Assembly (NCBI GenBank): GCA_024679065.1 | Contig: JAGIQG010000012.1 | Coordinates: forward strand, 15,996,001 to 16,060,000 | Length of the DNA: 64,000 nt | Direction of reading: 5' to 3' | DNA from: Sphyrna mokarran | Taxonomy: Eukaryota | Part shown: positions 2,970 through 52,395 of the stretch, in pieces | How the letters are laid out: every line of letters begins with the position of its first letter | Position numbering within the stretch: position 1 is the stretch's first letter | Notes under the pieces: generated by a model | Told to the model about the DNA's origin: nothing | Databases searched by the model: none | Seen by the model: the letters and a program-made list of their open reading frames with translations, nothing else | Position numbers and translations under genes: made by a program

Positions 2970-3020
2970 CTAAGTCAGGTTTCAGTTCAGTCGGCAAGCT
3001 TAGTTTTCTTGACATCTTCG
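2970..3020 (-). CDS. STXBP5: STXBP5 alternative exon (present in m/b-tomosyn, absent in s-tomosyn), 51 nt: AKMSRKLSLPTELKPDL
   Basis: Boundaries ttttttcag|CG...TTAG|gtaagt; matches recalled AKMSRKLSLPTDLKPDL; phase 1 to 1. Confidence 0.93.
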
Positions 3021-15978: not shown

Positions 15979-16529
15979 AAACAGTTTCTACCAGAGAGAT
16001 CCTCAGTTGAGGTCAATCACCTCATCTGAAAAGAGGCAAACCACCAAATATCAAGCAATATCATCTACCAATTAACTGATTTAAAACTGAACTAAAATAG
16101 ACATGTAAAAAACGTTATACCATCTGAATCATTAGGAAAACATTCAATTATATGCTAATAAATTGGTTTCACAACTGTTGTACAGAATTGCGTTCTATCA
16201 GGTACCTGTAAAATCATCTGCCTATACATATCCTATAAAAAAAACTAACATCTTCATTAATATAATTATTTTGATTTAAAAAAAGCAAGATCTGGGAGAT
16301 AAAGCAATTAAAATAGTTCATCTGTAGTTCAGTCTGAGATTACAGCGATCCCTACTGAATAAAGAGTGATCAATCACAATCATGCACTGCGTTCCCAGAT
16401 CAGAAACAGCCCAAAGCACAGTGTGGATTAGAAAAGCCACCAAGCAAGGTGCTTTGATTATCTGTTTGCATTTTGGTTAGTGCTTCAGAAAGAAAGGCAT
16501 TAGCAAAATATGGAATTGTCACATCATAC

Positions 16530-16577
16530 CTATATCAGATACTACGGTCTTGGAAAACTTTCTGCTTTTGTGTTTCA
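16530..16577 (-). CDS. STXBP5: STXBP5 alternative exon (b-tomosyn region), 48 nt: VKHKSRKFSKTVVSDI
   Basis: Boundaries atgcttttccag|TG...ATAG|gtatga; matches recalled VKTKSRKFSKMVANDI; phase 1 to 1. Confidence 0.9.
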
Positions 16578-16676
16578 CTGGAAAAGCATAATGTTTTATA
16601 TGTAAATAAAAAGAAAAATACTGATACAGAAGAAAAATCTGAACTGAAATGATATTGTACCATAATAATACTGTAC

Positions 16677-16736
16677 CCCTTTCTATAAAGTTAGGCATTT
16701 TTTGTTCATCTTCAGAATTGCATGAAGAGGTAGAAC
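16677..16736 (-). CDS. STXBP5: STXBP5 alternative exon (b-tomosyn region), 60 nt: GSTSSCNSEDEQKMPNFIER
   Basis: Boundaries cccgtatag|GT...AGGG|gtacag; matches recalled GSSSPHNSDDEQKMNNFIEK; phase 1 to 1. Confidence 0.9.
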
Positions 16737-18061
16737 CTATACGGGAATACATTGACAATATATTAAATAAAAAAAAACAGCACAAACATTTAATCTTCCT
16801 CCAACTTAATCCAGGTTTAAATGTGCAAGGTGCAAATGTGCTTTATTTCAATCAGCCCCATGTTAAGACACTCTAATGAGATACCCATGTTTCTGTACAG
16901 AAGGACACACTTCAGCAATTCAGAAACAACCATCTCCCTACCCCTACATCATTCTGTTCCTCTTCCGGCATCAAGTGCGATCTGACTGTACCATGCACAT
17001 TTTTAGAACTTATTTTAAGCATTAGCATAAGCCACTTCCAATCCAGTCACCTGACATTCAGGTAAATTACCCCTCAAATAGTCATGCATTTTTATTGCAA
17101 AAAAAATCCAAAATTTCTCTGAAGGGCGAGTCTATTCAGAATATTTGATCTTTTATCAGCTTCTCCCATTTTACTTGGGGTTGCTACAATGCCGGTCGAT
17201 TACCCTTCTCCATTTCTTTCCGTCAGTCATCCATTCTTTTTCCAGCCTGTTGTGTTTAAGTCTCCCGCCACTGTATTCTTCCAGCTGCTGTCAGGTTTTC
17301 CTCCTTTCTGTTTGTCTCATCTCCATCACGGATCTCACAACATGTCCTCCCTCTCTATGCAGCGTACGACCATATCATTTCAATCTCCTCTTGGCTACTT
17401 TCTTTGTTACTTCCATAATCTTTACTAATCCATTGATGTGCTGGTTCCTGATCTCTGCTTTTTCATTAGAACATTTAATTACAAGCTAATCTCATTAAAA
17501 TGTAACAAAAGAAGCTGTGTTACACCTTTAAGATTAGATCAAAATGTGGGGGACAGAAACACTCCTCTCCTGAAGGAACTGACTCCTTATTCATTACTGT
17601 CCAGCAGGAACCATCTACTAGCTCATCCATTTGCTCATCATTCATGTGAGAGACTTAACAGTGAGAACCATCAACAGCAAGTGCTCTTTGATTATGAGGG
17701 ATGTCAGCCACCAGCTTGATTCTTCCTTGGCATGATATCTTCACACAAATATCCCTGTCAGAGGATGATGACTAACCATCAGGGGCCATGAGGTTCATTA
17801 ACTCAACACTGTGAGAATCAAAACTGCAACCCTTGTGATCTAAATGGTGAGCTGTCTTAATCAGCGGAGGAAAAGATGCTCTGTAAATCTAAATATTAAT
17901 CTTTGAAGGAATACCATTCACATTAATTTGCTAACTAAAGCCAATATTTTTTCTAAATAGAAAGCCTCTCTCTGCTACTACTTGCATCAGAAGCAATGGG
18001 TGAACATACTTAAAGTACCCAATATACTGGGTACGTTGAGTATATATTCAATATACTCAGA

Positions 18062-18290
18062 GTAGCAGGTGCCTAGAACTCATTGCTTTGGGGGAAGGGG
18101 GGGGTCGGTGATATTGAAGTGGATACTGTACTGACTTTTAAGAGGTGTCTTGACAAGTACACAAATAGGTGGGAATAAAGGGATATGGTCCCCACAGGGG
18201 TAGGAGACTTTTAGTTAAGTTGGGCAGCATGGTTGTGCAGGTTTGGAGGGCCGAAGGGCCTGTTCTTGTGCTATAATTTTCTTTGTTCTA
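18062..18290 (+). mobile_element. CR1 3'-end fragment
   Basis: 'gggcagcatggttgtgcaggtttggagggccgaagggcctgttcttgtgctataattttctttgttct'; same family as 47910-49030. Confidence 0.75.
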
Positions 18291-21129
18291 AAATAATTCT
18301 AATCCCAACATCTCGGTTGCAGATTCTTCCACCAACAATGATTCTCACCAGCCAGCTGGGCTTGGGTCGCAGCAGTGTAGTATTTATGTTCATTGGCTGT
18401 GCAAGTTCAAATTTGCACCATCTCTTGGCAGTTTGAGAATATAAATTTTAAAACGTAGAAATAAAAGTGGTATCGATAAAAGTGACCATGAACTGTCAGA
18501 CTACTGTTAAAAACCCAATGCATTCACTCACGTTTTTAGGGAAAAAAGCCTGTTGTTCTGGTCTGGTTTATATGCAAGTCAGTCAGTGCCAGAAAAAGAT
18601 TGGTTAATATGTCTTTTCCATTTTCAGAAATGCAGAACTGCTCTGCTGGCCTTGCCATTTCTTATCTTTATTATTTATTTAACAGCAATAGCTCCAGTAA
18701 GAGTCAACGCATCATGAACCAGTACGCTTTAACAGAAATGACAATGTCAGGGACACAAATCTCTATAGAATCTCAATAGAAGTATAACACAGCAACACGC
18801 ATCATTTGTGATCAGAGATGCACTATTGTCTCTGCAGTTACGCAAGACAAACACATTTTAATTCAGCACTAATCGTAAACTGAATGCAATGCAACATATT
18901 CCAACATAGCTATAATAGTGTACATACATGGATGACAGATGAGACATTAAGCCAAGATTCCATGGCATTATTTCTCCCATTTTCTGGTTACCACCCCTAA
19001 AAAAGATTCAGCTGCTTATCTTCTCACACGCAACCTTGGTGCACTCAAACTAGCTGTCTACATAACAGTGACTTCAGATCATAAGCATCTTTGATTCACT
19101 GCAAATATCTCAGAACATCCTGAAGGTATGAAGTACGCTCTACAAATCTAAAATCTTTTATTACCTGTATTTTGCTAGTGTTAAGCTGTAATACATGAAG
19201 ACAATAAAAAGCATAACACATTAATATGCAAGAGGGGATTAGAAAACTGTGGATCTCAGTTACGTTACAAGATAAAACAAGAATGCAGACGATCAGAAAA
19301 AGAACAACAAAAAGACTAGCAAGTGGAACGTAATAATAAAAAGACTATTCACACTTAGGAATCTTCTATTGGACAATTCAGTGTATCAGAAAGTAAGCTA
19401 TTTTAAAATTAATAAGTGCCTTGTCCAAATAACTTGTATCTTTGAGTCTTTCAGACAAGACATCAAACTGGGCCCCAGCATTCTTTTCGTGATAATGGAT
19501 AAAATTGCACAACACTGAGGAGAATTTAGAAATTCTCCTCGATGTTGTGTTCCAATATGTATCCCTCGATCAACATCACTAGAACAGTTCAACTGGTCAT
19601 TATTGCATCATTGTTTGTGGGATGCTGCTTTGCGTTAAATGGTTGCTACATTTTCTACACTATAACATAACTATAAAGCACTTTGAAACTTCTGTAAAAG
19701 CACAGGTCCTCTATTCTTAAGGCATCAGGACGTGACAAATCTTTAACTACATCCACTCCCATATTTCCTGAAGGCATCAACTCCTTTGCTGATTAGGGTC
19801 CTGCAAGCACATTCCTTCTCTGGAGAAATGGGGAATGAAATTAGTATCAATTGCATTTCACTGGAACGTAAAGTGTTCCACGGGTGAAAATGCTTTTGAC
19901 AAGGTGTTGCCAATGAAAAAGCATAAGAGAAAATTCCGACACTAATGGGACTACTAAACACAAGCCAACAAATCAAACATTAGGGGTCTAGCACCACTGT
20001 ATTCTGACAAAGAAAGGCAGTCAGCAAAAGACTGGAGGGCAAACAATAGGTAACTAGAAAAACAGAATACTGCAGATGCCAGCAACAACTGGCACTGATA
20101 TGAGGGGATTTAGAAAAATGTAACTGGGCCAAGATCTTTTCAATATACTAAAGTAAAATCCAATGCAACATAATAATTGGGACCCAAGACAAATCTAAGT
20201 TCTTAAGATATTTGAATATTTCAGAATCATGGAGAATATTGTTTAATATTCCTTCTTCCCTTTTTACCTGGCTTCACAAACATTGCTCCCCATTTCATTC
20301 TCTTTTACCAAGATAAGAATTCATCATTTTCCATCAATATTACCTGCTGGCTTTGGTTCATTAAGGATTCTCTCCTTAGGTACTTTATCAAAGGCTTTGA
20401 GAATCTTGGTAAACTACAAAATGTTAGCTTTTTGCATTTCCTATTGTGTGTATATTTTTACCAACTCAAAAAATTCTTCAACTTACAAAACTTAAAAAAA
20501 TGTCCTTAGACAGTTATTGTGTAGAACTATTACGGAAAAATTATAAATACCCTAAAAAAATGATCTACAATTCCTGCCAAAAAGAAAGTTGGCACTCAAT
20601 GCAGACCAGCATTGTGACAACAGTCTCATCGATTTAAGCTTAATCCAGTTAGGCTTCAGACAATCCCAAGGTTTCCCAGGACTAACTAGGCCACAATTAC
20701 ATTAATTACCTCTGTCCCCCTCAGCTGATGATGGGCAAAAGTTGAATGTGGGCAACAGAACAAAGTGAGGTTATTCCATGAGGAAGGCAACCATCATGAC
20801 TGCTGGCAATTACATCAAGTTCAAAACCCACAAGGACACAGACATTCAACATGGATGGAGCACATTGTTAAGAAAACAAAAATGTTTTGGAACTGGGGAT
20901 CTGACCATGCAGACCAGAACATTCTGTTACGACAAGCGCAAAGGGTTGTTGATTAAAATAAGGAAAAGATGATCAAAGGAAAAATAGTCTTGACAGTGCA
21001 TTAAGGCGGCAACACCTGGACACCATTACTAAAGCAAGAAGCTGTGGAAATTGGAATCCTTCCAATCCCCTTCTAAAGGGACCCTATGCAATACCCTGCT
21101 CCGATTCTCCATCATCCCCAACAACAAAC

Positions 21130-21860
21130 TAACCTATTTTTCTTTCAACCGCAGGAGGTACAACATTTGCCCCTTTGATCTCTTCCCATCCTGCAAGGTC
21201 CCAAAACACTCCTTCCATGTATAACACCTATTAACTTGTGTTTCACCCAATTTATTCTACTATTTTCAAAGCTGACCACGTGGTCTCTTCCACACTGGGA
21301 AGACCAAATGCACACAAGGTTGCATTTGTAGAACGTCTTTGTACAGCTGGCAAACGTGATCCCAAAACTTCTGATCGTTTTAATTCCCCACCTTCCTCCC
21401 ACTCTGATCTGGCTGTCCTTGGAACTTGTAATGTTTTGAAGAAGCTCAATGCAAGTTGGAGAACTTTTTCATGTCTGGACACTTTACAGCTTATTAGACT
21501 TGCTGCATTCAAAAAAATTTAGTTCATAATCTCTGACCTCTCATTTTTTCCACTACTTTCCCCTGTTCCTTTCCTTGACATTCATTCCTCCGGACATACC
21601 TGTGTTTCCTTACTATTCTCATTACCACTCCCATTAGCCAAGCATCATGAATCCCACTGCCATTTATCCTCCATCCCATCACAGATCTACATTTTAGTTT
21701 TTTCACCCACCCTCCTCTCTTTCACCTGCTCAAAATCGATCACATTTCTAAATTTTCCCAGTTCTGATGAAATTTCACAAACCTCAAACTTACCTTTGTT
21801 TCCCGCTCCACAGATGTCGTCAGGCTTGCGGAATAGTTCCAGCATTTTCTATTTTTATTA
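21130..21860 (+). mobile_element. Penelope-like element 3' fragment (decayed GIY-YIG region plus terminal repeat)
   Basis: Decayed 'YCI.CSRCGL.Y.G.TK.....F.EHL....HFNSPP.SHSDL.VLG' coding remnants, then 'gttctgatgaa...tccacagatgtcgtcaggcttgcggaatagttccagcattttct'. Confidence 0.7.
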
Positions 21861-22924
21861 TAATTGGGTAACATTGGCAGACAGAAGACAAAAATGGGTC
21901 AGATAACCATGGATGCAATAGCTGCACCAATATTTCTCACCAGAATGGGGATCAATACTTAATTCCTTCATTAGTGCTGTAAGTGACTGGAATTGATTGT
22001 AAGCATGTCCATGCTCCATTTACTTCATTTTGCAGGAGATACAGCTTGCTTTTATTAGAAGAAGTTGCTGCAGTTTCAACTACAAATTCTGTTTGCTGAA
22101 GTTTAGGAGAGGCTGTCTTTAAATTGAATCTGTAAATAAACTGTGTTTGCTTTGCTGCGACATACACAACTTTGCTGTCGTTCCAGTGCTCACCTCTAAC
22201 TCAATGACTGATACTGTACTACGAACAGAACATTTCACTCACCACCTACTTTTTTCTGACTGCTAAAAAATAAATAATAAATCTGACAAAATTGATCCAG
22301 AATAAATAACTGGAATCTGAAGCATTATTTGAATTGTTTTGTTGTACAGAATTTTGTAGGAAAATGGTATGCAAACACAAACTTTAAGAATCACAGAAAG
22401 CAAGTGACAGATAAATCTTAATTAGGTTTTATTGTAATTCAGAATGAGTATTAACTGGGCGCAAACGTTGGATAAAAACTATCCTCCTCTGTCACTGTTG
22501 TGTTAATTGCTTTGTCAGGATATCTTAAGATTCAAACTTTCTTTGGTGGCTTATACAGGAGATTGCAACAGAACATTATCTCAGGATTAATCCAGAATGT
22601 CTGTTGTACCATGGTCACTCAGATTGGATTATTCTTCTATTTGAGGGCAAACCATCATGAATTTATTTTAGAATGAAACATAAAACTGGGATTCCACTGT
22701 TTATTTTCATATTACTCTTTAGCTACACACCATGAAAATGTTGGGTGACGAGATATCATTTAAAATGATTTAGGTGTGCAACACTAGATTCTATCAATCA
22801 ACAAACCACTTTCACGACTATCCACTGCTGCTCCTTGCATCCTTTTGTGCAAATACAAACACCACATTTTCAATTAATCTATTCCCTGAAAATAAAATTC
22901 CCATAAACTCACTGACACACTTAC

Positions 22925-22987
22925 CTGATGTGGGAGATTTGCAGCGGTCATCTAAAGTTGTAGAACCCTCATTGATATCACAGAGAC
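22925..22987 (-). CDS. STXBP5: STXBP5 exon, 63 nt: (G/S)LCDINEGSTTLDDRCKSPTS
   Basis: Boundaries ctttctttgtcag|GT...TCAG|gtaagt; matches recalled mammalian GLCDISEGTVVPEDRCKSPTS; phase 1 to 1. Confidence 0.93.
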
Positions 22988-24314
22988 CTGACAAAGAAAG
23001 TCAGCACGTTACCACAAAGAATACAATGATAAGGGGGTTAAGTTTGCATTTGTTAAACTCCATTAATGCAGAAGAACATCTCAAGTCATTTCAGAGCCAA
23101 AATAGGCAAAAATGGACAGAAATAATTGCTCAAGAAAACAAAGTTACTCCAGAAAGCATTTGGATCACAAAGGATCAGAATTTCATCACAGTGCTATGGG
23201 AATAAATGGGATGCCCGAGCAGCATAATGTCAATGTCTGTGGAACATCTCATTTTGAGATGGAGAACAGGTCAGCGAAACCAGAAGGGTTTCATAAGCCT
23301 ATTACAATCAATCAGAAAAGGCTTCTTTTTTTAAACTCCATTGCAGCAAAATTTTAAAATCCCTCAAATGAAGTATTTTATCTTTTTTTGATTCTTACAC
23401 CTGCCTAATGGACTGGGAGAACATTGCTGCATGACTGTACTTGAGGAGGAAACATTGGTGAGATTCTTATTGCACTTAGAAAGTACATCAAAATCCAGTT
23501 TCTTCGATTCAAATCCATTCTTTCTGAACATTAATGCAGCCAGAGTCCATCCCCTTGCTACATTAATTCTCCCGTCAATCTATTCTTATGATAAACTCTC
23601 ACATTGGAATGCATTCATCTAGTATGTAATGTCTTCAATCAAAGCCAAGCTTCTTCGCTACATTAATTATGCCATCAAAGCAAATCATTTTGTATAGTAA
23701 TTCATCTAAAAACCCACCTCTCTCATGCAATACTCATCCTATTGAAGCCCATCCCACCAGGGCATTTAATTCCCAAAATCCTTATCGCATGATGGCAGTC
23801 CAAGGTAACTTTTAATCATTCTAAAGTAGAATGCGTATTCTATTTGCCCGACAACACATTTCACCCCGGAGCCAGATCATAAATGAAAATGTACATTTAT
23901 GCACGCATCGCACAAAGCCACACGGTACAAATGCAGGGATCTTGTAACTGAACAGCTAGCATCTCCCTGCCCTTCAATGAACTTTGGGTAGAACTCTCAA
24001 AAGTCTGCATCATACTAGATATTCAGATTTAGACTCCTATTTCTCTTTCTAGTGCAACCAGCTAATCTACAGTACCGAATACATGCCAGGGCAATACAGT
24101 GGAAGTCTATCCTCATGTATCAAAGAATATTGTGAAGCAATGTTGGAATTTACAGAACAAAAATGTATTTTCACAACACTCCCAAAATATAGCATGATGA
24201 TATCTGTCCTATCTGACAATACAGTGCAATGTTCCTGAACTTGTATCTCATGTTTTTTTGTTGCATGAATTCCTGAATCTCAACAGGCAGAACCTACCAA
24301 CGTTAAGTTATAAT

Positions 24315-24430
24315 ATGGCAATGCCAGTGTTGGACTGGATGGGCACATAAGAAGTCTCACATCAGGTTAAAGTGCAAGAGGTTTAGAAAAATAAACCTCT
24401 TGCACTTTAACCTGGTGATAAGAGACTTCT
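24315..24430. repeat. Fold-back fragment of a Penelope-like terminal repeat; 23-bp perfect hairpin
   Basis: caggttaaagtgcaagaggttta-gaaaaa-taaacctcttgcactttaacctg (24363-24414); same family as 60780-61347. Confidence 0.8.
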
Positions 24431-25085
24431 AAGGCTTCTTGAACAATTCATAAAGCTTGTGTTCGAAGTGACCATAAAATTTAAAAAAAAACACACTAAA
24501 TGTGGTTACTTAAACAGACAACCACGATCAGTGAAGAAAACAGAATGTTTAGTCAGAGTCCAAAGACTGAATCAGGAGAAAAGAGCACAGAAGCCTAGTC
24601 TCTTCAATATTGAAAGAAGACAAACCAAACTAAAATAGATGTTACCATTAAAATGCTAACTCCTCCAGTGGTCTAATGATATGCTGCCAGCAAACATTTG
24701 GGCTGGACTGATCATTAAATTTTTGCTGATCTGTCTGTTTTATGAGGCCAATACAGGTGGTTGATAATATAAGAGACAGCAAATGTTGACTCTCTGCCAA
24801 ATAGAATATTCTCCATTGAAGCTTCAGCTTCTTATCTTTAATAAAACTGCTCAACCTATTTAACACAAGTACCCTCTTATAGAGCAGCTACTGAACCAAA
24901 GTCACTCAAGAGCAGCTCCAAGCATTATGCAACCAAAGCGTGCTGCTGTAGTAAACTATTTTTAATAGTTTATGTGCAAAGATAAAAGGGACCCATTGCA
25001 AATGATTTCAATAGCCGATGCCATGTATAGTAACTTCAAAATCCAAACACAAGACAGAAGTTTGTATCAGCGCGAGATGACTTAC

Positions 25086-25169
25086 TTAGATACGAAGAGC
25101 GTAGTCTTTTCACAGACTCAGAATATAAACTAGAAAGACCACACATGCAAGAAGTCACCGTCAGCATGC
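25086..25169 (-). CDS. STXBP5: Probable alternative STXBP5 exon, 84 nt: GMLTVTSCMCGLSSLYSESVKRLRSSYL
   Basis: T-rich tract then catcctaag|GC...CTAA|gtaagt; phase 1 to 1, stop-free; resembles the recalled STXBP5L segment 'DFCMRGLSNFYPDLTKRIRTSYQ' at the equivalent position. Confidence 0.75.
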
Positions 25170-26364
25170 CTTAGGATGCAGTAGAAAAAAAAAGCACAAC
25201 ACCAAAATAATAATTTGGCTGTAATAACCTGCAGAACAAAACTTAGAACACAGCAACAGATAACGCAATCTGTATAAAGACAGAAAATTAAAATCAGAAA
25301 TCACTGGGGCTATTTCCACATGATATTTTTATGACCCCAAAATAATATTCATGACATGTAGGAAAATCACATGCTAGAGTTCAAGCCATGAAGACAAACA
25401 CACAGTCATTCAGAAGAATGCAGGATATTAAAGAAAAAACCTTTTGGTTCCATAAGCTGAATGTCAGCTGATATGTATTTAATGTGTATGTTAAAAGTTA
25501 CTGAAGAATTTCAAGTTACTGAATTATAGAAGATGGAGATAAAATAAAATTAACAACATGTGAAGAGGAACTCAGTGCAGTAGGTAAGTCATCTTGCAAA
25601 AAGGCTGTTTTTGAAAATGCTCTAAGTGAACAGCGAGTGGGATTGCTCCCAAGGATGGTGGACATGATGGACTGAATGGCCTGCACCTCTGTTCTGCAGA
25701 TTTCTAGGTCTATGTTGAGAAGCAAGGCTGCTCCAAAGCTAGAAGTAGAAAATGACAATCCTCACAATTATGTTAAGTGGAAGCTGGGTCTGGGTAACAT
25801 GACACAGAAGCAGCAGATACAGAGAATATGTAAAATTATGTCCTTCCTCACAGGTGGTCAAAAGTATCCTTCCCACAGTTTTGTGTTCTCTTGCTGGAAT
25901 ACCCCGATTTACTTTCAAGTATGTTTTAAGGTTACCTAATTTTTTACACTTCAACTAGATAATCTCCTTTTGAAGGCTAAAAGCACTCCAAGATTCCCTG
26001 TTCTTCCTCTAAAACTGAGGATCACCCTCCTGTCTCTTTGCAATGTTTCCCTCTCTTGTTGACCCAGAGTGAACTCAGTACTCAAGATTTGTCCATAATC
26101 AGAAACTGTTCAATCTCAGAACCATATAGTCTCTTTGCATTCACTGAAGGAGTGATACAATTCAGCACTTTACTCATTGCATTCATTGCTCCTCCGCAGT
26201 GATGGTAAATGTTAATCTATAAGCAGTTACACATTTTTTTCTGTTTTTGCTTTAGTTGTTTCTTTTGTACCATATAAGCAAAGGGGGCCATTCCTGTGTT
26301 GCCTCTATAAAGAACTATCCAAGTAGTCTCATCTCTGGTGCCTTTTCAAGTCAATACTACTCAG

Positions 26365-27218: not shown

Positions 27219-27370
27219 CTCCTGAGGCTTGTCGTGTTTTACGTGGGGACTTTGGTTGTCTCTGGTAAGGGTCGTTCGACCCATACAGTTCAATTGTGCC
27301 CAGGTTTAGCAGCACAGTTTTCTGAATGTAATCTACCATTGCAATGCCATTGCAGTTTCCAAACACCAAA
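27219..27370 (-). CDS. STXBP5: STXBP5 exon, 152 nt: LVFGNCNGIAMVDYIQKTVLLNLGTIELYGSNDPYQRQPKSPRKTRQASG
   Basis: Boundaries ctctttag|T...GGAG|gtaagc; phase 2 to 1. Confidence 0.95.
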
Positions 27371-40171: not shown

Positions 40172-41095
40172 ACATAGGAGTAGAATTAGGCCACTCGGGC
40201 AACCGAGTCTTCTCCACCAATGAATCATGGCTGATATTTTTTCTCATCCCCATTCTCCTGCCTTTTCTCCATAGTCGTGATCCCCTTATTAATCAAGAAC
40301 CTAAGAACCTATCTATCTCTGTCTTAAAGACTTCCACAACCTTCTGCGGCGAAGAGTTCCACAGATTCACCACTATCAGGCTGAAGAAATTCCTCCTTAT
40401 CTCTGTTCTAAAGGATTGTCCCTTTAGCCAGAGGTTGTGCTCTCTGGTTCGAGTTTTTCCTACTAGTGGAAACATCCTCTCCACATCCACTCTATTCAGG
40501 CCTTGCAATATCCTATCCTCCCTCGTCCTTCTAAACTCCAACAAGTATAGAACCAGAGTCCTCAACCGTTTCTCATACCACAAGTTCTTCATTTCAGAGC
40601 TCATTCTTGTCAACTTCCTTTGGACTTTTTCCAAGGCCAGCGCATCTTTCTTTAAATATGGGGCCTAAAACTACTCAATATTCCAAATGGGGTCTGACCA
40701 GAGCCTTATACAGCCTCAGAAGTACATCCCTGCTCTTTATTCTAGCCCTCTTGACTCAAATGCTAACATTGCATTTGTTTTCCTCAGTGCTAACTGAATT
40801 CGCACGTTAACCTTAAGAGAATCTTGAATAATGACTCCCAAGTCCCTTTGTGTTTCTGATTTCCTAAGTATTTCTCCATTTAGAAAATAGTCTATGCCTC
40901 TATTCCTCCTTCCTAAGTGCATAACCTCACTTTTCCGCATTGCATTTCATCCACCACTTGTTTGCCCACTTTCCTAACCTGTCCAAGTCCTCTGTAGCAC
41001 CCCTGCTTCCTCAATACTACCTGTCTCTCTACACATCTTTGTATCATTTGCAAACTTAGCATCAATGCCTTCAGTTCCTTCCTCCTTCTGTCAAT
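40172..41095 (-). mobile_element. CR1/HER1-type LINE, 5'-truncated
   Basis: ORFs 40293..40634 'EKVQRKLTRM...RRNFFS..VVNLWNS' and 40737..40940 'EVMHLGRRNRGIDYFLNGE...QRDLGV'. Confidence 0.9.
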
Positions 41096-41989
41096 TCCCT
41101 GCATATTCTTGGAAACAAATAAAGACATCTCAAAGTCTGCTTCTCCAAAGAAACAAAACCCAATTGCTTTAACATTTTCTAGTTACTTTCCTGCTTAGGT
41201 GGAACTATCTTGTTCCCAGTTTTTCTCATGACCAAAGTTTGTCTCCTTGGGATTACTGCAAAATTGTACACACAGATTCCACCCAGCACAGCCTTTTAAT
41301 TTCTGCATTCCAAACCTGTTAACAGTCCTATACAACCCTCAATTTTTAACCCATGTCTTATTTTTAGTATTTATTCATTTTCAATTTAATTCCTCAGATG
41401 CCTATCCAGTTGAATGAATGAGCGAGCTACAGTCTATGCATTTACTACCAAAAAAACTAACCTTATCTCAATTAGTTTCACTATTTTGTAGTTTAGAAAC
41501 AACAAAGATTTCAGCTTCACTCAAAAATCCTTCTACTTTGATAGTACGCCACTTAAATTCTCTGCATTTCCAATTTTTAAATTTGTTTTTCACCAATCCC
41601 ATGTCATAACTTGAACTTTTGTAGTTTTTATTTTAATTAGAATCATCCATGTAATTCTGGAAATAATAAATACTTAGCAATTAGACAACAGCATCTTCTT
41701 CACTGATTTCTTCATCTTACTCTTAAAATTGATTCTGCTCTTTTTCTTGATACTGAAGTTAAGCTGACAGATCTGTATTTGCCTGGGGCAAACTTGTTGC
41801 TTTCAAAATATACATCCCATCTTTAAGTACACGTGTGAAAGTGATAACCACCTACAGCTCTATCTAATTCCTTCCCTTATTGCTTCTATTCTTATACTGA
41901 ACAAACATTTTGCTTCAGATCTCTTACAAACACTTCTGTTGGTTTCCACAAGAAATATATCTGCGACGAAAAGACACACAACTTCCTAG

Positions 41990-43172
41990 CCCTTACATGT
42001 TTCTGATACATAGATGATTTGTTGCAGATATCTGAATACACAGATGCGTATAAGAACTTCTTTACACACTTCAATGGGTCCATCATCCTGCGTTGAAATT
42101 CACCTTTAAATTAGTGCAGTCAAATAAACTTCCTTTTCTCAACATGCTAGTTCTTAAGTTGAGAAATCTGAGAATTGGTTTTCTATTATTATTTACCACA
42201 AGCCTATCTTTACTGGTCAATATACATAAGGATTCCTACGGTACAATGCGCTATAAGATTGGCCTCAATGGCAACCTCAAATATGGCCTGAGCCACTTGC
42301 TCTTCATGCAAGCTTGATACTGAAACAGGGCGCAAAGCCATCCTGCAGGATAATGACTACACCGATCAGATCATTGCTCATTTATATCATGGAAATTCAT
42401 GAATGGGTCCCAAGGTTGCCACTTTCAGCCCTGAAAAATGTGTCCAGTCTGCCTCAGATTTGGGGAAGTGTATGGTGTCTCAAAACTCTGAGCAACAATA
42501 AAGTTAGTTGTTGCATACTGTTACTATGCAGTAGCAACACTAAGTAGTAGGGTCTAATAAAAGGATGCTGCCGTCAGGCCAAACAGACGTTCTGCCTGTC
42601 ACTCAAATGAGTAATATGGTCAATGAATTTCAGTGCCTTTGGGGATGCTAGGTATATAGGCCATATGTCCCAACAGTTGGAAAGTCATATCACACAGCAT
42701 GATCCATTTGGATGTTCAGAGAAATGCAGACCGTACCCAACTAGCCCGTGCTTGCAAAACTCAAGTAGTTAAGATTAGATGTGATTCTACAATTGGACAA
42801 TACTTGCTAAACAATTGTACCAATTTAAGATTTTCAGTAGGACTTGCAGTGTGGCTCATTTACACATGCTAAAAATCACATATGTTCACTCTTAAGGGTC
42901 CTACCCTTTCCAGACAAAAGAAGCATGTCCACACAGTGTGCCTTTCCAACTGAAAAAATGCTAGTGGATTGCCATTCTCTGGTTCATTCCCCATAGCAAT
43001 GCCTTGACCAGCTGATCTGCCTGCCTTGAGTTTCAAACAAAAGCTTGGCAGTTAACTGTTCTCTGCTGCATTGTCAATGGCAATGTCTCTATTTCCTCTT
43101 GGTTCATCTTGCATAGCTATCCTGATGAGTGCAAAACAAAACTTCAATTGTATGTCTCTTTTTTCAGCAATT
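41990..43172 (+). mobile_element. Penelope-like retroelement remnant (RT C-terminus, GIY-YIG region, terminal repeat)
   Basis: 'LKFTFKLVQSNKLPFLNMLV', decayed 'KP.FTGQY', 'RYKIGL.GNL', 'KAILQDN.Y', 'SN.V.EFQC...ARYIG', then 'cctgatgagtgcaaaacaaaacttcaattgtatgtctcttttttcagcaa'. Confidence 0.8.
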
Positions 43173-43609
43173 GCAAACTCAACAAAAAACTACAAGACTG
43201 ACAGATAATATTTCAAATAGTAACTCCAACACTCACTTAGTACTGCATTGAAGTTGTTGCCTGAAATATGCACTCATATCCTGAACTGGGGCATGAACAC
43301 ACAACTTTCAGACTCAAGGAGGTGTAAATACTACATCAGCCAGTTGTTGAGCAAAAGAAAGGAGACACATGTTAGCCAAAGAAAAGAAGGTGAGGTGAGC
43401 CAGTTAAGTGTAGCATTATGAGGCTGATAAAGAATTAAAAAGGCAAAATGTAGTAATGGTAGGGTTTCAGAAGAGATAAAAATTCCTAACCCTCCTGTCT
43501 CCTTACTCGTTTTCCTTGCAGCCTGCAATTTGTTTTCCCTTCCTATTCCTATTTTAAATAGGAATTATTCATTTGCTTGCTTCAGGATTCACTTCTACTC
43601 CCTCTATCT

Positions 43610-43915
43610 ACATAGAATCCCGACAGCGTAGATCATTTGGCTTACCAAGTCTGCACCAATCACAATCCCACTCAGGTTCTTTCCCCGTAACCTCACATTT
43701 ACACTGCTAATCCCCCTGAACTATTGCCATGCTAAATTGAACCACCAACCTGACCCGCATATCTTTGAACTGTGGGAGGAAGGCGGAGCGTCCGGAGGAA
43801 ACCCACACAGACACAGGGAGAATGTACAAATTCCACACAGACTATGACCCGAAGCTGGAATTGAACCTGGGTCCCTGGAGCTATGAAGCAGCAGTGCTAA
43901 CAACTGTGTCACCCT
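43610..43915 (-). mobile_element. HE1-like V-SINE
   Basis: 'catagaatcccgacagcgtag...tgtgggaggaaggcggagcgtccggaggaaacccacacagacacagggagaatg...gaacctgggtccctggagct..gcagcagtgctaacaactgtgtcacc'. Confidence 0.85.
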
Positions 43916-44753
43916 TTTATCTTTGTTAACAGATATTTTGCAATTAAGCTCATCTTTCAGTCCTCTGAATCTTGTCTTAAAACTGGGAGAACAGAGGAAA
44001 GATAGGTGCTTCATGCCAAAATAAAAATGCCAATACAAAAACTGTGAATTCACCTTCCAAATAAGAGTTCAAAATATATATTTCATCCATAAATAACTGG
44101 GACAGAGAGAAATTTGCTGAATAGAGAAATGCTACAAAGCAGTTGAGATAGAGCAGAGTTTTAGGTAAAAATACAAATAACTACAAAATAAGTTTGAAAA
44201 GAACAAACAGTTGCATCTCAAATGAACAAAGCAAAACAGTACTACAAATACACACAGAGCTATAATCTTTCATTATCAATAAGGCATATAATCACCTTGT
44301 TTACCCATGGATTCATAAAGATTACCACAGACGATCTGCAATTCTTTCATGTTCCAATCTTCGTCATTGTCAAATGACATATTCCAAACTAACATGAACA
44401 TTAGATATCTGATTGTATACTTTATACGCAATCACTCTTTCATGATCGAAGATGATGCATTTTGTACTTTGCTGGGTTCAATTTAGCTGCTAACGCTATA
44501 CAGATTCAGCAATTCTAAATTGTGCACATCAGCAAATGCAAGGAAAATTAATTTGATAAACAAAATGTCATTTATTTTTCAACAGATTAAGCACCAACAA
44601 ACCACAATTTTATTGATTGCATGTTGAGTTCAAGTAACATAAGTATATACATCAGTTTCTTAAATATTAACAATGTGATTTGTACTTAAAAGACACAACT
44701 GTACTTAATGAGGCATATCTTGAATAACCAGAGACAGAATGTTCCATACTTAC

Positions 44754-44821
44754 CCTGTAATAATTATCTCTGGATAACTTTGAGTGCCTAAACCCCAATT
44801 CCCTCCATTGATGGGCCATTC
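44754..44821 (-). CDS. STXBP5: STXBP5 exon, 68 nt: EWPINGGNWGLGTQSYPEIIITG
   Basis: Boundaries cttatag|GAA...ACAGG|gtaagt; phase 0 to 2. Confidence 0.95.
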
Positions 44822-45908
44822 CTATAAGGCATAACAAAATAAATATAGACACCATAAGAGATTTCCTTTTCAATAGATGCTCTTACCATTAATCATACTA
44901 TCCAAAAATTGAGGTAAACATTTAAGGCAGTCCTAGTGGGCAAGAAAACTACGCTGCAATATGAACCTCTCACCAATAACTGTGAGACCCACTGCATAAA
45001 CAGTGCCTTTTCTGCCTTCAAACATAAGGTCAAATTTAAGCAATGGATCAAATAAAATCAGGAATTAATAAGGGAGTCCCAACAGCCCCCCACCCACCTA
45101 CCCATACCCCACACAGGAGGATAGCAAAAAAATGGCAATTCCTTCACAAATAACTTTCCCAATTATAGTTTGGCAACTTCAGGGGCAATCAAATTCTCTG
45201 CTTCCCTCTTCATCTTCAAATAGAACACAATTAAAACATTTGGAAATATGGTAGCAGGACATGAGTTCCAAAATTTCAGTCAAGAAATGAAACTACACTG
45301 AAGACACCCGAAATATAAACATAAAAGTCTGCAGCTCAGGAGCCAATTCACCCCATTTGATAAGGTACAACATTGGAGATTCGTTACAAAAATGAATGAC
45401 ACGAGCAGAAAAAGTAAACTTAAAGTGCTGGAGGAACACTGATAGTCAATGTGTTAATGCTTCAAGAAGGCATAGCTGTTCCAGCTTTGCAGATATCAAT
45501 GAAAATCTACGCATTGTTCAAACGCCACTTTTTTCTCCGAATGGAGACCATAAATAATTGGATGTAAACACAGGATCCTATTTTAAGTCATGCCATTTAA
45601 AAGGTAATCTAATTTTAGAAACAAAACATTTGACAATGAAGAGAAGCTCTGAATACATGAAAATAGCAGGAGTATTAACAAACGTAGAGGCGTGTTTATT
45701 CACATACGCAACAGGATCAAAAAGGTCACACTGAGAAGAGATACATTACTCTCCCAAGGGAACTAAGTTAACGGTGTGGTGCACAATATGCTAAATAGCA
45801 AGGAAATTCTGTATAAACATTCGTGCAAGAGGCCGAACATAGAGGAAATACACAGTAGCACAAAAAAAACCTGCATAGTTTTTAAATTTTGAAAGACAAA
45901 TTCTACAC

Positions 45909-46056
45909 CTTTTTGCTGTATCCTTGCCGCTTCTGCTTTGCCCCAACAGAATAAAGTGCAGGAATTAAATCAACAGGACAGTCAGCAAAATACTCGCAAC
46001 AGGTGACAGGTGATTCATGTATATCCAAGGGGTATGGGTTCTCAAATATAGGATAA
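45909..46056 (-). CDS. STXBP5: STXBP5 exon, 148 nt: YPIFENPYPLDIHESPVTCCEYFADCPVDLIPALYSVGAKQKRQGYSKK
   Basis: Lies in ORF 45903..46085; boundaries tcttccag|T...AAG|gtgtag; phase 2 to 0. Confidence 0.95.
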
Positions 46057-46459
46057 CTGGAAGACAAAAAAAAAACACCATGCATTCAGAGTCTTAAAAT
46101 AAGCAGTGGCAATAGACATTTCATTAAAAAAAACTATAAAGTTAGCTTCCAACAAAGTTAGGACTTTTCATATAAATCCATTGACCTAAGTTATAAATCA
46201 GGCTAAGATTGTACACAGTGATTACGCCATAACAGTTACGATGAAAAGGAGCATATTGTCAAGGATTTGCCCATTGATGACAGACTCGTCCAGTGCTTTG
46301 CATTAATTATTCCTTTAACAAAAGTATTGTATCCTGTTCCATATCATTTCTGGTTAGTTTTAGTAAGAACAATAGATTCAATATCACTTATCAGATAGCC
46401 ATTTCAAAATATCCAGCTCCCAATTAAACAACAAATATGAACATATTCGAATCAACGAA

Positions 46460-47905
46460 TAGTTACAGTGTAGAAGGAAGCCATTTGGCCCCTCACGTTT
46501 GTGCTGGGCTCCCTGTAGGAACAATTTACGAAGTGCCATTCCCTATCTTTTGCTCATAGCCCTGCACATCACTGGCCTTTTCATTTAATGACCAATTTCC
46601 TTTTGAATGCCATGACGGAAGTTGGCTTCGCCACATTCCTCAAACAATGTCATCCTGATCTCAAACACTTGTCGTGTAAACCAAAACGGTTATTATTGCT
46701 TCTTCTGTCAATTATTTTAAATCAGCATCCTCTCGTTATCAATCCTTCCATCGATGTGAATGATTTTGCCCCAACTATTCTGTTCAGACCCTTCAAGATT
46801 TTGAAAACCTCCATCAAATCTCTCAAACAAGAACAGCCCCAGCTTCTCCAAACTGTCAAAATGACTAATACCCTGGAACCATTCTCATGAATCTTTTCTG
46901 TACCCTTTCTAACATTTTCGCCTAAAGCGTGGTGTCCAGAACTCAATGCAGTACTCCAATCGAGGCTGAACCAATGTTTTATTTTTGGTACCTTATGCTT
47001 CTACTTATCATACCATATATTTTATTAACCACACACTCAATCTGTCCTGCTGCCTTCAACAATTTGTGTACACATACATACAAATTGCTCTGATCCTGCA
47101 TCCACTTCAGAATTGCACCCGTTAATTTATAATGCGTCTCTGCGTTCTTCTGAGCAAAGTGAATTATTTCACACTTCTCTGCATTAAATTTCATCTGCCA
47201 CGAACATATGTCCTTTTGAAATTCTACACTATCCTCCGCAATTCACAATGGTGCCACATTGTGCGTCATATCCACATTTTACAATTGTGCACTTTACACT
47301 AAGGTCTGAATCATTAATATATAATCAGAAGGAGCAAGGATCCTAACATATTGACCACCACGAGTAAATGTTTCTTCAGTCCAACGAAAACTAACTGCTC
47401 ACTGCTCCTGTTTCCTGTCACTCAGTCAATTTTGTTTTCATGTCACTACTGTTTCTTTTATTCCATCAGTTCTAATTTGTTCACACGTCTGTTGTATGGC
47501 ACTACATCAAATGCCCTATGGTATCCTACGTACACCACACCAATAGTGTTACCATCATCAACCCTCCCTGCTACTTCATCAGAACATTCAAATAAGTTAG
47601 TTAAACACGATTTTCCCTCAACAAATCCATACTAGCTTTCCTTAATTAACTAGCATTTCTGACAGACACTATTAATTTTGGCTCGAATTACTTCTTCCAA
47701 AAGCTTCACAACCACCGACTCTAAACTGACTGACTTGTAGTTGCCAGGCTCATCTTTTTTTGAACAAGAGCATGACTTACAATTTGCCAGCCCTCTGCGC
47801 AAGACCCCACACAGTCTAAGGAAGACTGGAAAGTTATGGCCAGTGCTCACTTAATTTCCACCCACTTCTCTCTGTATCTTTAAATGCATCCCCTGGTACA
47901 CTATA
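46460..47905 (-). mobile_element. Degenerate CR1 LINE (RT region to 3' end)
   Basis: ORFs 'MKFNAEKCEIIHF' and 'LRDLMEVFKIL'; sequence encoding 'PGNYKSVSLESVVVKLLE'. Confidence 0.85.
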
Positions 47906-47909
47906 TACA

Positions 47910-49030
47910 ATCAAAGAACAAAGAGAATTACAGCACAGGAACACGTCCTTCAGCCCTCCAAACCTGCACCGACCATGCTGCCCAAATGAACTAAAACCCC
48001 CCCCCACCCTTCCAGGGGCCATAGCCCTCTATTCCCATTCTATTCATGTATTTTTCCAGACACCCCTTGAAATTCACTACTCTGCCTCCCCAGCAGAGAA
48101 TTCCAGGTACCCATCACTCTCTGTGTAAAATATTTGCCTCGTACATCTCTTTTAAACATTGCGCCTTGCACTTTAAACTTATGCCCCCTAGTAATTGACT
48201 CTTCCGCCCTGGGAAAAAGCTTCTGACTATCTGCCCTGTCCATGTCCCTCAATTCTGTAGACTTCTATCAGGGTGCCCCTCAATTTCTGTTGCTCCAGTG
48301 AGAACAAACCAAGTTTCTCCATCATCTCCTCACAGCTAATGCCCTCCAAACCAGGCAATATCATGGTAAATCTTTTTCCAAAGTCTCCACATTCTTCTGG
48401 CAATGATGCAACCAGAAATGAACACTATATTCGAAGTGCGGCCTAAGATTCTATAAAGCTGCAACATGACTTGCCAACTTTTAAATTCAATGCCCCGGCC
48501 AATAAAGGCAAACATGCTGTATGCCTTGACTACCTTCTTCATCTGCGTTGCCACTTCAGTGACCTGTGTACCTGTACACACAGGTCCATGTGCATATCAA
48601 TACTCTAAAGAGTTCTGCCATTTATTGTATATTTCCTATCTTTATTAGGCCTTCCAAAATGCATTAACTCACATTTGTCTGGATTAAATTCCACCTGCCA
48701 TCTCTCCACCCAAGCCTCCAACCGATCTATATCCTACTGTATCGTCTGACAGTCATCATCGCTATCCACAAATCCATCAACCTTTATGTCATCCACAGAT
48801 TTACTAATCAAATCAGTTATATTTTTTTCCCAAATCATTTATGTATATTATAAACAGCAAAGACCCAGCACTGAACCCTGAGGAACATCACTTGTCACAG
48901 CCCTCCATTCAGAAACACACCCTTCCGTTGCTACCAATGTAACGGCACCTTTTTTGTTTTTTGGCTCTAGCCAAATAGGCTCTGTCCTGGATCCCGCTGG
49001 GACATCCTCTCCCTTCAGTACTGCCACCAT
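47910..49030 (-). mobile_element. CR1/HER1 LINE, internally deleted
   Basis: 3' tail 'caaagaacaaagagaattacagcacagg'; ORFs 'MRDMDRADSQKLFPR...KYFTQRV' and 'KAYSMFAFIGRGIEFKS'; sequence encoding 'SEWRAVTSDVPQGSVLG'. Confidence 0.9.
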
Positions 49031-49553
49031 CCTCCTTTCTTTCCTTCCCTTGCTGCATGAAAACTGACATCAAGCTCGTTACGCTAGTGGTCAAAGTGTG
49101 ATATGCTTGACCATACTGAAAATTCGATATGGGAAAATTCTCCAACCAAGGATAAAGTCAGTAACTGAAGTTTTGAATGTTATATTTTTGTTCAAAGAAA
49201 CCTTAGATGAAACAGTGAGTGAATAGTGTTGAGGGATCTGTTAGATATCTAAAAAGGAATATGCTAGTTAATGGCCTTTGATTGCTGAAAAGTATTCTGC
49301 ATTTAACTTTTTCTAAAAGATACCTCCTTGAAGTCCCCATGTCCTCAAACCTTTAAGTTACCTCAGTCAGGCACCTCTTTTTGAAGAGCAATGTTATTAC
49401 TAAACATCAAAACATTTCCACAAATTAAAACAATAATCAGATATGGCAGGGATATATACCTCCATTGATTGAATTTTATTTAAGTTAAACTGCTATTCTT
49501 GAACCCAGTTTATTGGTCATTATTGCAACTGTCAATTTCAGTACAATTCTTAC

Positions 49554-49626
49554 CCATTCTGTCCAAGATCTACAACTACTAAGTCCTTCTCCAGAAGGAC
49601 AACCACCGCATACGGCTCCTGAAAAT
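49554..49626 (-). CDS. STXBP5: STXBP5 exon, 73 nt: DFQEPYAVVVLLEKDLVVVDLGQNG
   Basis: Boundaries tttctacag|AT...AATGG|gtaaga; phase 1 to 2. Confidence 0.95.
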
Positions 49627-50489
49627 CTGTAGAAATACAATAAATAAAACCTGTCAGAAATAGATGCACACAATTGGAAAAATGATCTTCAGATCAATCA
49701 GGCATGTGGAGTGCAATGCTAATAGTTGGGAATTTTATTATTTTCTAATGCAGAGAAAAATCAAATTGCAATTCTATAATTTTTCACTGAAAGCAGAAAA
49801 GAATGATCGACATCAACTTATCTTCCAAATTTGAATAGCAATAAATCATGTGATTGCAGAGGCCTGGAGAGTGTGGAATTAAGCTGCAGGAAGAACCATT
49901 GAGACTTAAACACTGATGCTTCCCATTTATATATTTTACTGTATTTTAATACTATTTTCAAAGCCTTCATTTTATACATTCAATACTAAGTGGAGTGTTT
50001 GAAATTGTTTATTTGGTCAATGAAGAAAAAAACAAAAAATGGATGTGGATTTCAGCCCTAGAGCTGCAGCTGTATTTGCATTTCTTCCCAGTTAATATTC
50101 TTGTGAAATAAGAGTTTGATTCTTGTGAAAGTATGCTGCTCATGACAGATCCAGTTAACACAGTCTGTTTATTCCTTAAATGAGGCACAAAGGGATGCAG
50201 GGAACCCTCGTTATGTATATAAAGTGTAATGAGAGGGCCACCCTGGATCCTCCGTGCAACCAGGAGTAGCATGAAATATCAGAAATTTGAGCTGAAGTCT
50301 CTGTTGGAGGAAAAACTGCTTGTTCTAAAGCAGAAATCATATGCAGTTTCTTGGTCTTCCGTCCCAGAATATCACCACTCAAAGGACAGTACCGGGCAGT
50401 TAAGTATACAGAGATAACAGGGAGGACGACATGCACATTAATCTGCAAGAGAAATAGAGGAAGGCAACATTCATGTGCACGAGGATTAG

Positions 50490-52395
50490 ACTTGTATAGG
50501 TTTACAGCATGAAAACATGCCCAACTTGTCCATACTATCCTTTTGTTTTAAACCCTAAGCCAGTCCCAATTGTCCACATTTGACTCATATCCGTCTATAA
50601 CCATTTTACCCATGTAGCTGTCTAAACGCTTTTTCAAAGACAAAAAATTGTACTCACCTCTACTACTACATCTGACAGTTTGTTCCAGACATGTACCACT
50701 TTGTGCGGGGAAACAACTGCCCCTCTGGACACTTTTGTTTCTCTTCCCTCTCACCTTAAACCTATGCCCTCTAGTTTTAAACTCCCCTTATCTTTGGGAA
50801 AATATATTGACTATTTAGCTGATCTATGTCCCTCATTATTTTATACACTCCTATAAGATCACCCCTCAACCTTCTAGCTCCAGAGAAAAAAGTCCCAGTC
50901 TATCCAGCCTCTCCTTACAACTCAAGCCACTAAGTCCCAGTAGCATTCTAGTAAACCTCTTCTGCACTCTTTCTAGTTTAATAATATCCTTTGTATAACA
51001 GTGTGACCAGAACTGTACACAGTATTTCACGTGTGGCTTACCAATGTCTTGTACAACTTCAACAAAACGACCCAACTGCTGTATTCAATGTTCTGACCAA
51101 TGAAACCAAACATGCTGAATGCCTTCTTCATCACTCTGTCCATCTGTGGCTCCACTTTCAAGAAGCTATGAACTTATACCTGTAGATCTCTGTTCTGTAA
51201 CTCTCCTCAATGCCCTACCATTAACTGAGTAAATCCTGTTCCAGTTCAATCAAAATGCATCACCTTGCATTAAACTCCAACTGCCATTCACCAGCCCACT
51301 GGCCCAACTGAGCAAGATCTCACTGCAATCAGAAAAAACCTTCTTCATTGTGCACTATGCGATAATCTTGGTATCGTCTGCAAACTTACTAACCATGCCT
51401 CCTATATTCACATCCAAATCATTAATATAAATGACAAATAACAGTGGACCCAGCACTGATCCCAGGTCTCCAGTTTGAAAAACAACCCTCTACAACCACC
51501 TCTGGCTTCTGTCATCAAGCGAGTTATGTATCCATTTGGCAACCTCACCTTGGATCCCATGGGATTTAACCTTATGCAATAACTTACCATGTGGTACCTT
51601 GTCAAAGTCCTTATTAAAGTGCACGTAGACAACATCAACTGCACTCACTACCTTCTTGGTTACCCCTTCAAAAAACTCAATCAAATTTGAGAGACACGAT
51701 TTTCCGCTCACAAAGCTATGCTGACTGAACCAAATCAGTCCCTATTCTTTTGCCTCACTAAACGCCTGTACAACCCATCTCTCAAAACATCTTTCAACAA
51801 CCTATCCACCACAGATGTGAGACTCATCGGCCTGCAGATCCCAGGCTTTTCTTTGTAGCCCTTTCTAGATAAAGGCACAACATTTGCCACTCTCCAATCT
51901 TCAGGCACCTCACCTGCAACTGTCGTTGATTCAAATTTCTCCACTAGGAGACCTCCAATTTCCTCCTGGCCTTTCTCAATGTCCTGGGATGCACTTCATC
52001 AGATCTCAGGAATTTATCTATCTTGATGTGCTTTAAGACTTCCAGCACTTCCTTCTCTGTAATATGTATACTTCTCAAGACATCACTATTTATGCCCCCA
52101 AGTTCCCCAATATCCATGCTTTCCTCCAAGTAAATATTGATAAGAAATATTTAGGATCTCTTATGGATGATGACATAGATGACGTTGTTGATCCTTAAGA
52201 GGCCCTATTCTCTCCTTAGTTACTCTTTTGACCTTTATGTATTTATAGAAGCTCTTTGCATTTTCCTTTGCCTTACCTGTCAAAATAATCTCACATCTCC
52301 TTTTTGCCCTTCTGATTTCTCTCTTAACTCTATTCTTCAAGGGATTCACTTGATTCTAGCTGCCTTTGCATGTCATGTGCCTCCTTCTTCTTCTT
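50490..52395 (-). mobile_element. CR1/HER1 LINE, about 1.9 kb of the RT region
   Basis: ORFs 'GKSCLSNLIEFFEGVT...VDVVYVHFNKDFDKVPH', 'GEVPEDWRVANVVPL' and 'KYCVQFWSHCYTKDIIKLERVQKRFTRML'. Confidence 0.92.

Follow-up and report, generated by a model that had tools for sequence, protein, structure and literature searches.

A conserved optional 84-nt exon in shark STXBP5 (tomosyn-1) and its counterpart in STXBP5L

Introduction

Tomosyn-1, encoded by STXBP5, is a brake on vesicle release. Its hypervariable region reportedly yields the b-, m- and s-tomosyn-1 splice variants, which Yokoyama in 1999 and Groffen in 2005 are said to have described. These variants use optional in-frame exons of the same loop as the exon studied here, and their homologs lie at 16677-16736, 16530-16577 and 2970-3020 of the window, by which we mean the whole stretch of 64,000 nt of shark DNA that was analysed; our exon differs in lying upstream of all of them. 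In the accessible parts of the literature, three tomosyn-1 and four tomosyn-2 isoforms are counted, and the hypervariable region is described as both SUMOylated and phosphorylated by PKA (PMC3188574, PMC3948876). The accessible part of another study gives four mouse reference transcripts and uses the 1116-residue m-isoform, including for rescue (PMC10495110).

A regulated cassette in the tomosyn hypervariable region has also been described in the paralog STXBP5L (tomosyn-2). In the accessible parts of these papers, the regulated tomosyn-2 exon under study is a 171-nt one (PMC3636136, PMC5199341), and a Sam68/SLM2-regulated Stxbp5l exon appears under other numbers elsewhere (PMC7409371, PMC11077083). 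The exon repressed by T-STAR/SLM2 and Sam68 (exon 23 in the accessible part of PMC3636136) is this 171-nt, 57-residue exon of Stxbp5l, which is not the twin of the shark cassette. The exon that does correspond is a 72-nt cassette of mouse Stxbp5l, included at 35% in wild-type adult brain and at 43% in the T-STAR knockout (PMC3636136, Dataset S1, row 30, in the accessible supplement). We therefore rejected the twin as the T-STAR/SLM2 target, as it shifts by 8 points and the 171-nt exon by 30 points (PMC3636136, accessible part).

The mouse Stxbp5l cassette shares with the shark STXBP5 exon the intron position, phase 1-1, the donor position, an exonic TGCATG over Cys-Met, a Gly-Leu-Ser core, an Arg-x-Ser end, and occurrence in both skipped and included form. 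It differs in an acceptor placed 12 nt further downstream and in an Arg in place of the second Cys; furthermore, the STXBP5L exon measures 72 nt in tetrapods and 66 nt in cartilaginous fish, and mouse Stxbp5l has a downstream TGCATG, whereas none occurs within 400 nt downstream of the shark STXBP5 cassette.

Results

Anatomy of the exon and its host gene

The host gene in the window is STXBP5: another eleven exons correspond to annotated STXBP5 of sharks and rays, two more optional ones were found besides, and when the upstream exon was used for a protein search, the best 120 of 889 matches were all STXBP5 where named. The exons and splice elements are as follows.

25086..25169, minus strand: cassette exon of STXBP5 (tomosyn-1), 84 nt or 28 codons, phase 1-1, and the first of the optional exons in the hypervariable region (splice sites and frame; identical peptide in annotated ray and catshark isoforms; donor joined to 22987 in a run X1 contig)
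25170..25200, minus strand: pyrimidine tract and AAG acceptor of the cassette (sequence)
25080..25085, minus strand: GTAAGT donor of the cassette (sequence; joint 22985-25084, CT..AC ends)
27219..27370, minus strand: upstream constitutive exon, 152 nt, with the last propeller strands and the start of the loop
22925..22987, minus strand: downstream exon, 63 nt (annotation match; run X1 joint)
16677..16736, minus strand: 60-nt optional exon of the hypervariable region, present in longer isoforms (annotation; joints in run X2)
16530..16577, minus strand: 48-nt optional exon of the hypervariable region (annotation; joint 16577-16677 in run X2)
2970..3020, minus strand: 51-nt optional exon, whose homolog bears SUMO site K730 of mouse tomosyn-1 (PMC3948876, accessible part)

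A preliminary description of this DNA had proposed an 84-nt in-frame exon with an AG acceptor, a GTAAGT donor, phase 1-1 and no stops, and this was confirmed when a script spliced it between the flanking exons, whose boundaries lie at 27219 and 22987. Phase 1 holds both at the end of the upstream exon (27370-27219) and at the beginning of the downstream exon (22987-22925), and the inclusion and skipping forms are both open in one frame. Inclusion adds GMLTVTSCMCGLSSLYSESVKRLRSSYL, followed by Ser as the next codon. This Ser had also been predicted; it is the sole form seen in sharks and rays, but bony vertebrates mostly have Thr-Gly there. At this junction of the 63-nt exon, proteins of bony vertebrates come in two forms that differ by one residue, whether or not the cassette is present, and the shark acceptor (22988-22990) is a single CAG. 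The one-residue difference, with Thr-Gly in bony vertebrates, is likely due to a tandem NAGNAG acceptor.

Seventeen of the 20 bases in the tract before the cassette are pyrimidines, and AAG is a less common acceptor type. The nearest further AG lies 49 nt upstream, and four other AGs within about 130 nt upstream were dismissed as rival productive acceptors because each runs into an in-frame stop. As DNA, the 84-nt stretch is single-copy in the genome. This anatomy alone is suggestive and not proof, because a crude splice filter (pyrimidine tract, AG, GTRAG, frame-preserving, stop-free) passes three candidates on the minus strand of the 64 kb, namely the cassette and two others (45 and 21 nt). 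The two others lend some plausibility to a chance pseudo-exon in an intron, but that reading is refuted: more than 30 species have annotated orthologs, the matching intron of the paralog holds a corresponding exon, and one contig is spliced. The 84-nt exon is a real optional exon of shark STXBP5, which we regard as proven by conservation, the paralog exon and the spliced contig.

Several further observations concern the rest of the gene. When positions 1-23000 were searched for short exons with isoforms of gar and shark, no additional hypervariable exon came up. In cartilaginous fish and gar, further optional segments that are lineage-specific come after the 51-nt exon, and in gar, sturgeon and some teleosts a segment of 16 residues stands ahead of it; neither was found in window positions 1-23000. 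The 99-nt intron between the 60- and 48-nt exons (16530-16736) is a multiple of three without an in-frame stop, so that its retention would add 33 mostly hydrophobic residues; run X2 shows splicing there. Highly repeated elements occur at about 18100-18300 and 24330-24400, where contig depth reaches thousands, and intronic fragments at 40300-54000 are, judging from their motifs, presumably broken reverse-transcriptase-like LINE pieces.

Transcript evidence

Contigs over 16300-26300 were taken from two runs, X1 and X2, which are RNA by guess, come from related organisms and contain 10% and 6% of the sequence words. In run X1, a single contig of 323 nt at depth 5 runs from 25084 straight to 22985 and leaves out 2098 nt bounded by CT..AC; the short side of this joint measures 28 letters. 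The cassette donor is used in transcripts, as seen in this one contig of a related species from a run that is RNA by guess. The contig continues through about 200 nt of the upstream intron, so it may be a splicing intermediate. The upstream junction, 27219 to 25169, lies beyond the stretch covered by the contigs and is present in annotated proteins of other species. Where the run X1 contig covers the exon and some 200 nt of intron ahead of it, 10 differences were counted in 292 nt, compared with 158 in 2265 nt for five other intronic pieces of the same run (Fisher p 0.023). Run X2 gave an unspliced contig across the exon with no joint there, which is neutral as evidence, and shows the joints of the 63-, 60- and 48-nt exons.

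Occurrence and conservation in STXBP5

The identical 28-residue peptide is found in RefSeq predicted isoforms of catshark and four rays. Identity to the window peptide is 28/28 in catshark and ray, 26 in sturgeon, 24 in gar, 23-24 in amphibians, and, among amniotes, 23/28 in crow, 22 in mouse and 23 in marmoset. In the same rows the upstream propeller exon retains 40-49 of 50 residues and the downstream exon 13-20 of 20; the cassette is thus about as conserved as the upstream propeller exon and mostly more so than the 63-nt exon.

The preliminary description had granted that annotation in many orthologs would make the exon real and not new. The exon is already annotated in STXBP5 of more than 30 species, and its novelty is not supported. 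These species comprise five rays, catshark, sturgeon, gar, bichir, three amphibians, many birds, and, among mammals, mouse, grass rat, marmoset, sperm whale and black bear; a diverged toothfish model also has it. As annotation, the exon is known across jawed vertebrates, and every STXBP5 record with it that we encountered is an automatic prediction. Predicted isoforms with the exon include the following.

Scyliorhinus canicula X1 (XP_038661079.1), Hemitrygon akajei X1/X3/X4, Mus musculus X2 (XP_036012002.1) and X9
Callithrix jacchus X6, Xenopus laevis X1/X2, Lepisosteus oculatus X1

Between these predicted isoforms and the shark exon, position, frame and exon are alike and nothing substantial differs. 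Included and skipped forms are annotated within one species, as in Hemitrygon (X1/X3/X4 and X2/X5/X6, respectively), and likewise in Mobula, Narcine, gar, newt and a frog (Leptodactylus). Mouse X2 has 1164 residues, which equals 1116 (m-isoform) plus 28 (cassette) plus 20 (60-nt exon), and the m-isoform therefore lacks the cassette. Nor are b- and s-tomosyn-1 known to contain it. Mouse X9 (XP_036012006.1; 760 residues) is a model that includes the cassette and ends soon after the 63-nt exon, without the second propeller half and the SNARE helix.

In an untargeted search, 10 of 120 proteins carried the insert among the matches listed. A search aimed at the insert returned 22 of 27 candidate proteins and cluster members added more, so that the figure of 61 among 229 STXBP5-side rows with the exon is inflated by this search. 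Among shark proteins other than rays, the exon was found in catshark X1 only (15 of 40 members listed), and no human STXBP5 protein at all was among the members listed (15 of 204). The corresponding exon of STXBP5L is carried by 54 of 120 proteins, from chimaera to birds, and missing from 66, again among the matches listed. Inclusion in STXBP5 may thus be low, given 10/120 against 54/120 and catshark X1 as the only case among non-ray sharks.

The rarity in annotation, the AAG acceptor and the silence of the accessible tomosyn-1 literature would fit a decaying duplication relic that is rarely spliced and has no function in STXBP5. We consider this very improbable: zero amino-acid changes separate the shark from catshark and four rays, mammals keep 22-23 of 28 residues, and the reading is largely refuted because a relic would not retain such conservation.

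The literature searches, judged mostly from their listings, surfaced no study of the STXBP5 exon or its paralogy, with most subscription papers and splicing databases outside their reach. The accessible parts of PMC13232099, PMC3632591 and PMC8377282 hold nothing on it, and the accessible tomosyn-1 passages of PMC3188574, PMC3948876 and PMC10495110 do not mention it. As far as these searches reach, the biology of the exon is unstudied, and its annotation is already known.

The twin exon in STXBP5L and the age of the cassette

Besides its own locus, the upstream exon matches the genome at a single further place, on contig C335, where the best protein matches are named STXBP5-like. The 28-residue peptide was searched against the whole genome, and a twin was found at this locus; it is the sole other match in 2.77 Gb (E 0.035).

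C335:16181496-16181561: STXBP5L twin exon, 66 nt, with CAG acceptor and GTAAGT donor

The twin lies 9.1 kb after the homologous upstream exon and ahead of the homolog of the 63-nt exon, and intron and phase match. Between the shark paralogs, the cassette region (including the 12 nt upstream of the STXBP5L acceptor) is identical in 20 of 26 residues and 74% of bases, compared with 31/50 and 27/43 residues and 63% of bases in the two upstream constitutive exons. The cassette DNA alignment scores 83, and the maximum in 300 shuffles was 49. The proposed resemblance to the STXBP5L alternative exon is therefore borne out as homology, by the matching intron and by this score. Because the twin occupies the same intron of the paralog, the exon evidently predates the STXBP5/STXBP5L duplication, in agreement with the ancestral cassette originally postulated.

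The paralogs share the donor position but not the acceptor, which sits 12 nt further downstream in STXBP5L and thereby leaves the Gly-Met-Leu-Thr codons of STXBP5 within the intron there. Across this offset, 11 bases beginning GGCATGC are identical, exonic in STXBP5 and intronic in STXBP5L. By eye, the mouse Stxbp5l 72-nt exon has GGCATGCT at the matching intronic place and TGCATG over Cys-Met (PMC3636136, accessible supplement). About 90 nt upstream of C335:16181496, the intron looks strongly conserved between shark and mouse, by eye and in the accessible mouse sequence, and contains TGC repeats, which are a possible site for MBNL- or CELF-type factors.

The age of the exon may extend further back. 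The lamprey model S4RZ55, a long branch with unusual letter make-up, groups with STXBP5L (99/97). Immediately behind its upstream exon, 9 residues match the cassette with a score that 2 of 108,051 windows attain, this one counted; the rest of the exon is missing. This trace weakly suggests that the exon is probably older than the split between jawless and jawed vertebrates. Among 150 invertebrate representatives with one isoform each, no profile match was found. Weak profile matches fell on the basic loop of Lgl-like proteins.

The 51-nt exon with the SUMO motif also has an STXBP5L twin, at C335:16237563-16237610, which is optional in annotated shark and bird STXBP5L; thus at least two optional exons are common to the paralogs. 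The SUMO site is said to be absent from mouse tomosyn-2 (PMC3948876, accessible part).

GCATG elements and splicing control

Two GCATG elements are common to shark STXBP5, shark STXBP5L and mouse Stxbp5l.

25165..25169, minus strand: GCATG at the first exon bases, candidate Rbfox site; in STXBP5L of shark and mouse the same element lies in the intron, 12 nt ahead of the acceptor
25144..25149, minus strand: exonic TGCATG spelling Cys-Met, candidate Rbfox site; also in the shark and mouse STXBP5L exon

The exonic TGCATG, at 25149-25144 over the Cys-Met codons, had been noticed in the preliminary description and is indeed present. The background of TGCATG is 0.42 per kb, and a single copy near an exon is weak when taken alone. 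Rbfox sites in or upstream of an exon repress it. By this rule, Rbfox proteins bound to the acceptor GCATG and to the exonic TGCATG would make skipping more frequent in mature neurons and muscle, and such repression would explain why the three named tomosyn-1 isoforms are not known to contain the exon. From the position of these elements, the cassette is likely repressed by Rbfox-type factors, which fits its rarity in annotation. In the titles and abstracts of the literature searched there was no statement on the exon as an Rbfox target.

These elements also bear on the question of what is conserved in the exon. It might be kept mainly for RNA-level reasons, as a splicing element fixed by factor-binding sites, with the peptide as a tolerated passenger. 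Shark and mouse STXBP5L (the latter from an accessible supplement) conserve GGCATGCT at an intronic position, the codons of the invariant Cys-Met read TGCATG in three of three DNA sequences, and the first Met has become Val in parrots, grass rat and marmoset. Identical codons at shared residues number 9/18 in the cassette and 10/31 and 7/26 in constitutive exons, all small numbers. This excess is not special to the cassette, since the 63-nt exon has 8/10 identical codons. Nine of the 18 shared residues other than Met and Trp have different codons in the two shark paralogs, and we therefore conclude that the peptide itself is under selection. Furthermore, exon lengths of 84, 72 and 66 nt differ by whole codons, and the frame is kept in every record examined. 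We accordingly hold an explanation mainly at the RNA level to be unlikely and prefer an exon whose peptide also matters, in which the TGCATG element may contribute to the retention of the shared Cys-Met.

Peptide and loop

In an AlphaFold2 model (89-row alignment) of the catshark isoform with the cassette included, residues 678-753 have pLDDT below 50, and the cassette (residues 691-718) forms no helix. An amphipathic helix is not supported, as none was modelled and the helical moment is not above shuffles (p 0.073). No solved structure covers the loop: for tomosyn there is a single entry, of the SNARE helix, and among Lgl structures the best stretch reaches no further than residue 542.

Cys-Met, Gly-hydrophobic, a Tyr and Arg-x-Ser occur in every one of the 26 distinct variants collected from the two paralogs. 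The features named first belonged to the selecting pattern, and Arg-x-Ser held in 115 of 115 rows under a looser pattern. The basic kinase-type motif of the preliminary description is thus well founded, with Arg-x-Ser kept in 26/26 variants of both paralogs. Its CMC cysteine pair stood in part: Cys-Met is shared by the paralogs, but the second Cys is specific to STXBP5 and is Arg in STXBP5L. Of the cysteines, one is left in the toothfish model and none in the lamprey trace.

We propose that inclusion would insert 28 residues into the predicted disordered hypervariable loop. The invariant Arg-x-Ser would offer basic-directed kinases a handle in the loop that holds the PKA and SUMO sites, Cys-Met-Cys would possibly be acylated by palmitoyl transferases, and the new loop motif would tune the place and strength of the restraint of tomosyn on SNARE assembly. 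Judging by titles, none of the listed papers on tomosyn palmitoylation deals with the exon.

Comparison with Lgl proteins

LLGL1 (PDB 8r3y) and LLGL2 (6n8p) carry their aPKC loop as the same loop of the common double-propeller fold, and a short likeness of the type Ser-hydrophobic-basic-basic-Leu-Arg is shared with the cassette; the cassette has far fewer basic residues, a negative profile score, and is optional. The Lgl basic loop is constitutive. One could suppose that the exon brings back a basic-hydrophobic helix like that of Lgl proteins, which carry theirs in this loop, and that the helix serves as a membrane anchor which aPKC switches off. The cassette loop is the position of the SLKKSLRQSFRR motif in human LLGL1, and the Glu-Ser-Val-Lys-Arg-Leu-Arg of the cassette is similar to the last part of that motif; on the Lgl profile the cassette scores higher than 97.6% of shuffles (p 0.024, post hoc). 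On the basic-hydrophobic scale, with its threshold of 0.6, the STXBP5L versions score 0.56-0.62. However, the best score near the STXBP5 exon is 0.45-0.49 and lies upstream of the exon, compared with 1.0-1.1 for Lgl; the Lgl profile score is -6.8 against 26.5-56.0 for 19 real Lgl motifs and is not the protein's best window; and the net charge is only +2, in a segment about 30 residues further into the loop than the Lgl motif. An Lgl-type membrane motif was thus rejected as a candidate, with the same loop but a failed basic-hydrophobic score and profile match, and we find the idea that the exon restores such an anchor quite doubtful. In the literature searched, no paper linked tomosyn with Lgl, polybasic motifs and aPKC together.

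Discussion

We think it reasonably probable that the shark exon is a conserved, frame-preserving optional exon of STXBP5 with a twin in STXBP5L, likely repressed by Rbfox, which likely adds a phosphorylatable and possibly lipid-modified motif to the loop. This reading builds on the exon itself, its frame, its conservation in jawed vertebrates, the annotated included and skipped forms, one donor junction and the paralog exon, all of which are established above. A bolder version, which we put forward only tentatively and consider improbable as a whole, would be an unstudied splice choice as old as the vertebrates, with a dual-coded exon in which Cys-Met doubles as an Rbfox site, an acceptor that slid by 12 nt after the duplication while a second such site was retained, and a membrane-contact motif controlled by phosphorylation and acylation in the loop that holds the aPKC switch of Lgl.

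For annotation the value of this finding is small, as databases already hold the exon, and it serves as a pointer for specialists on tomosyn. For the biology of the family, the cassette is better conserved between the paralogs than the neighbouring propeller exons, and this within a regulatory loop. In addition, it illustrates neatly how both copies can retain a cassette after an early vertebrate duplication, here with a 12-nt acceptor shift around a conserved GCATG. If the bolder version is true and inclusion is cell-type-specific, studies of m-tomosyn-1 would have missed a differently regulated brake on exocytosis.
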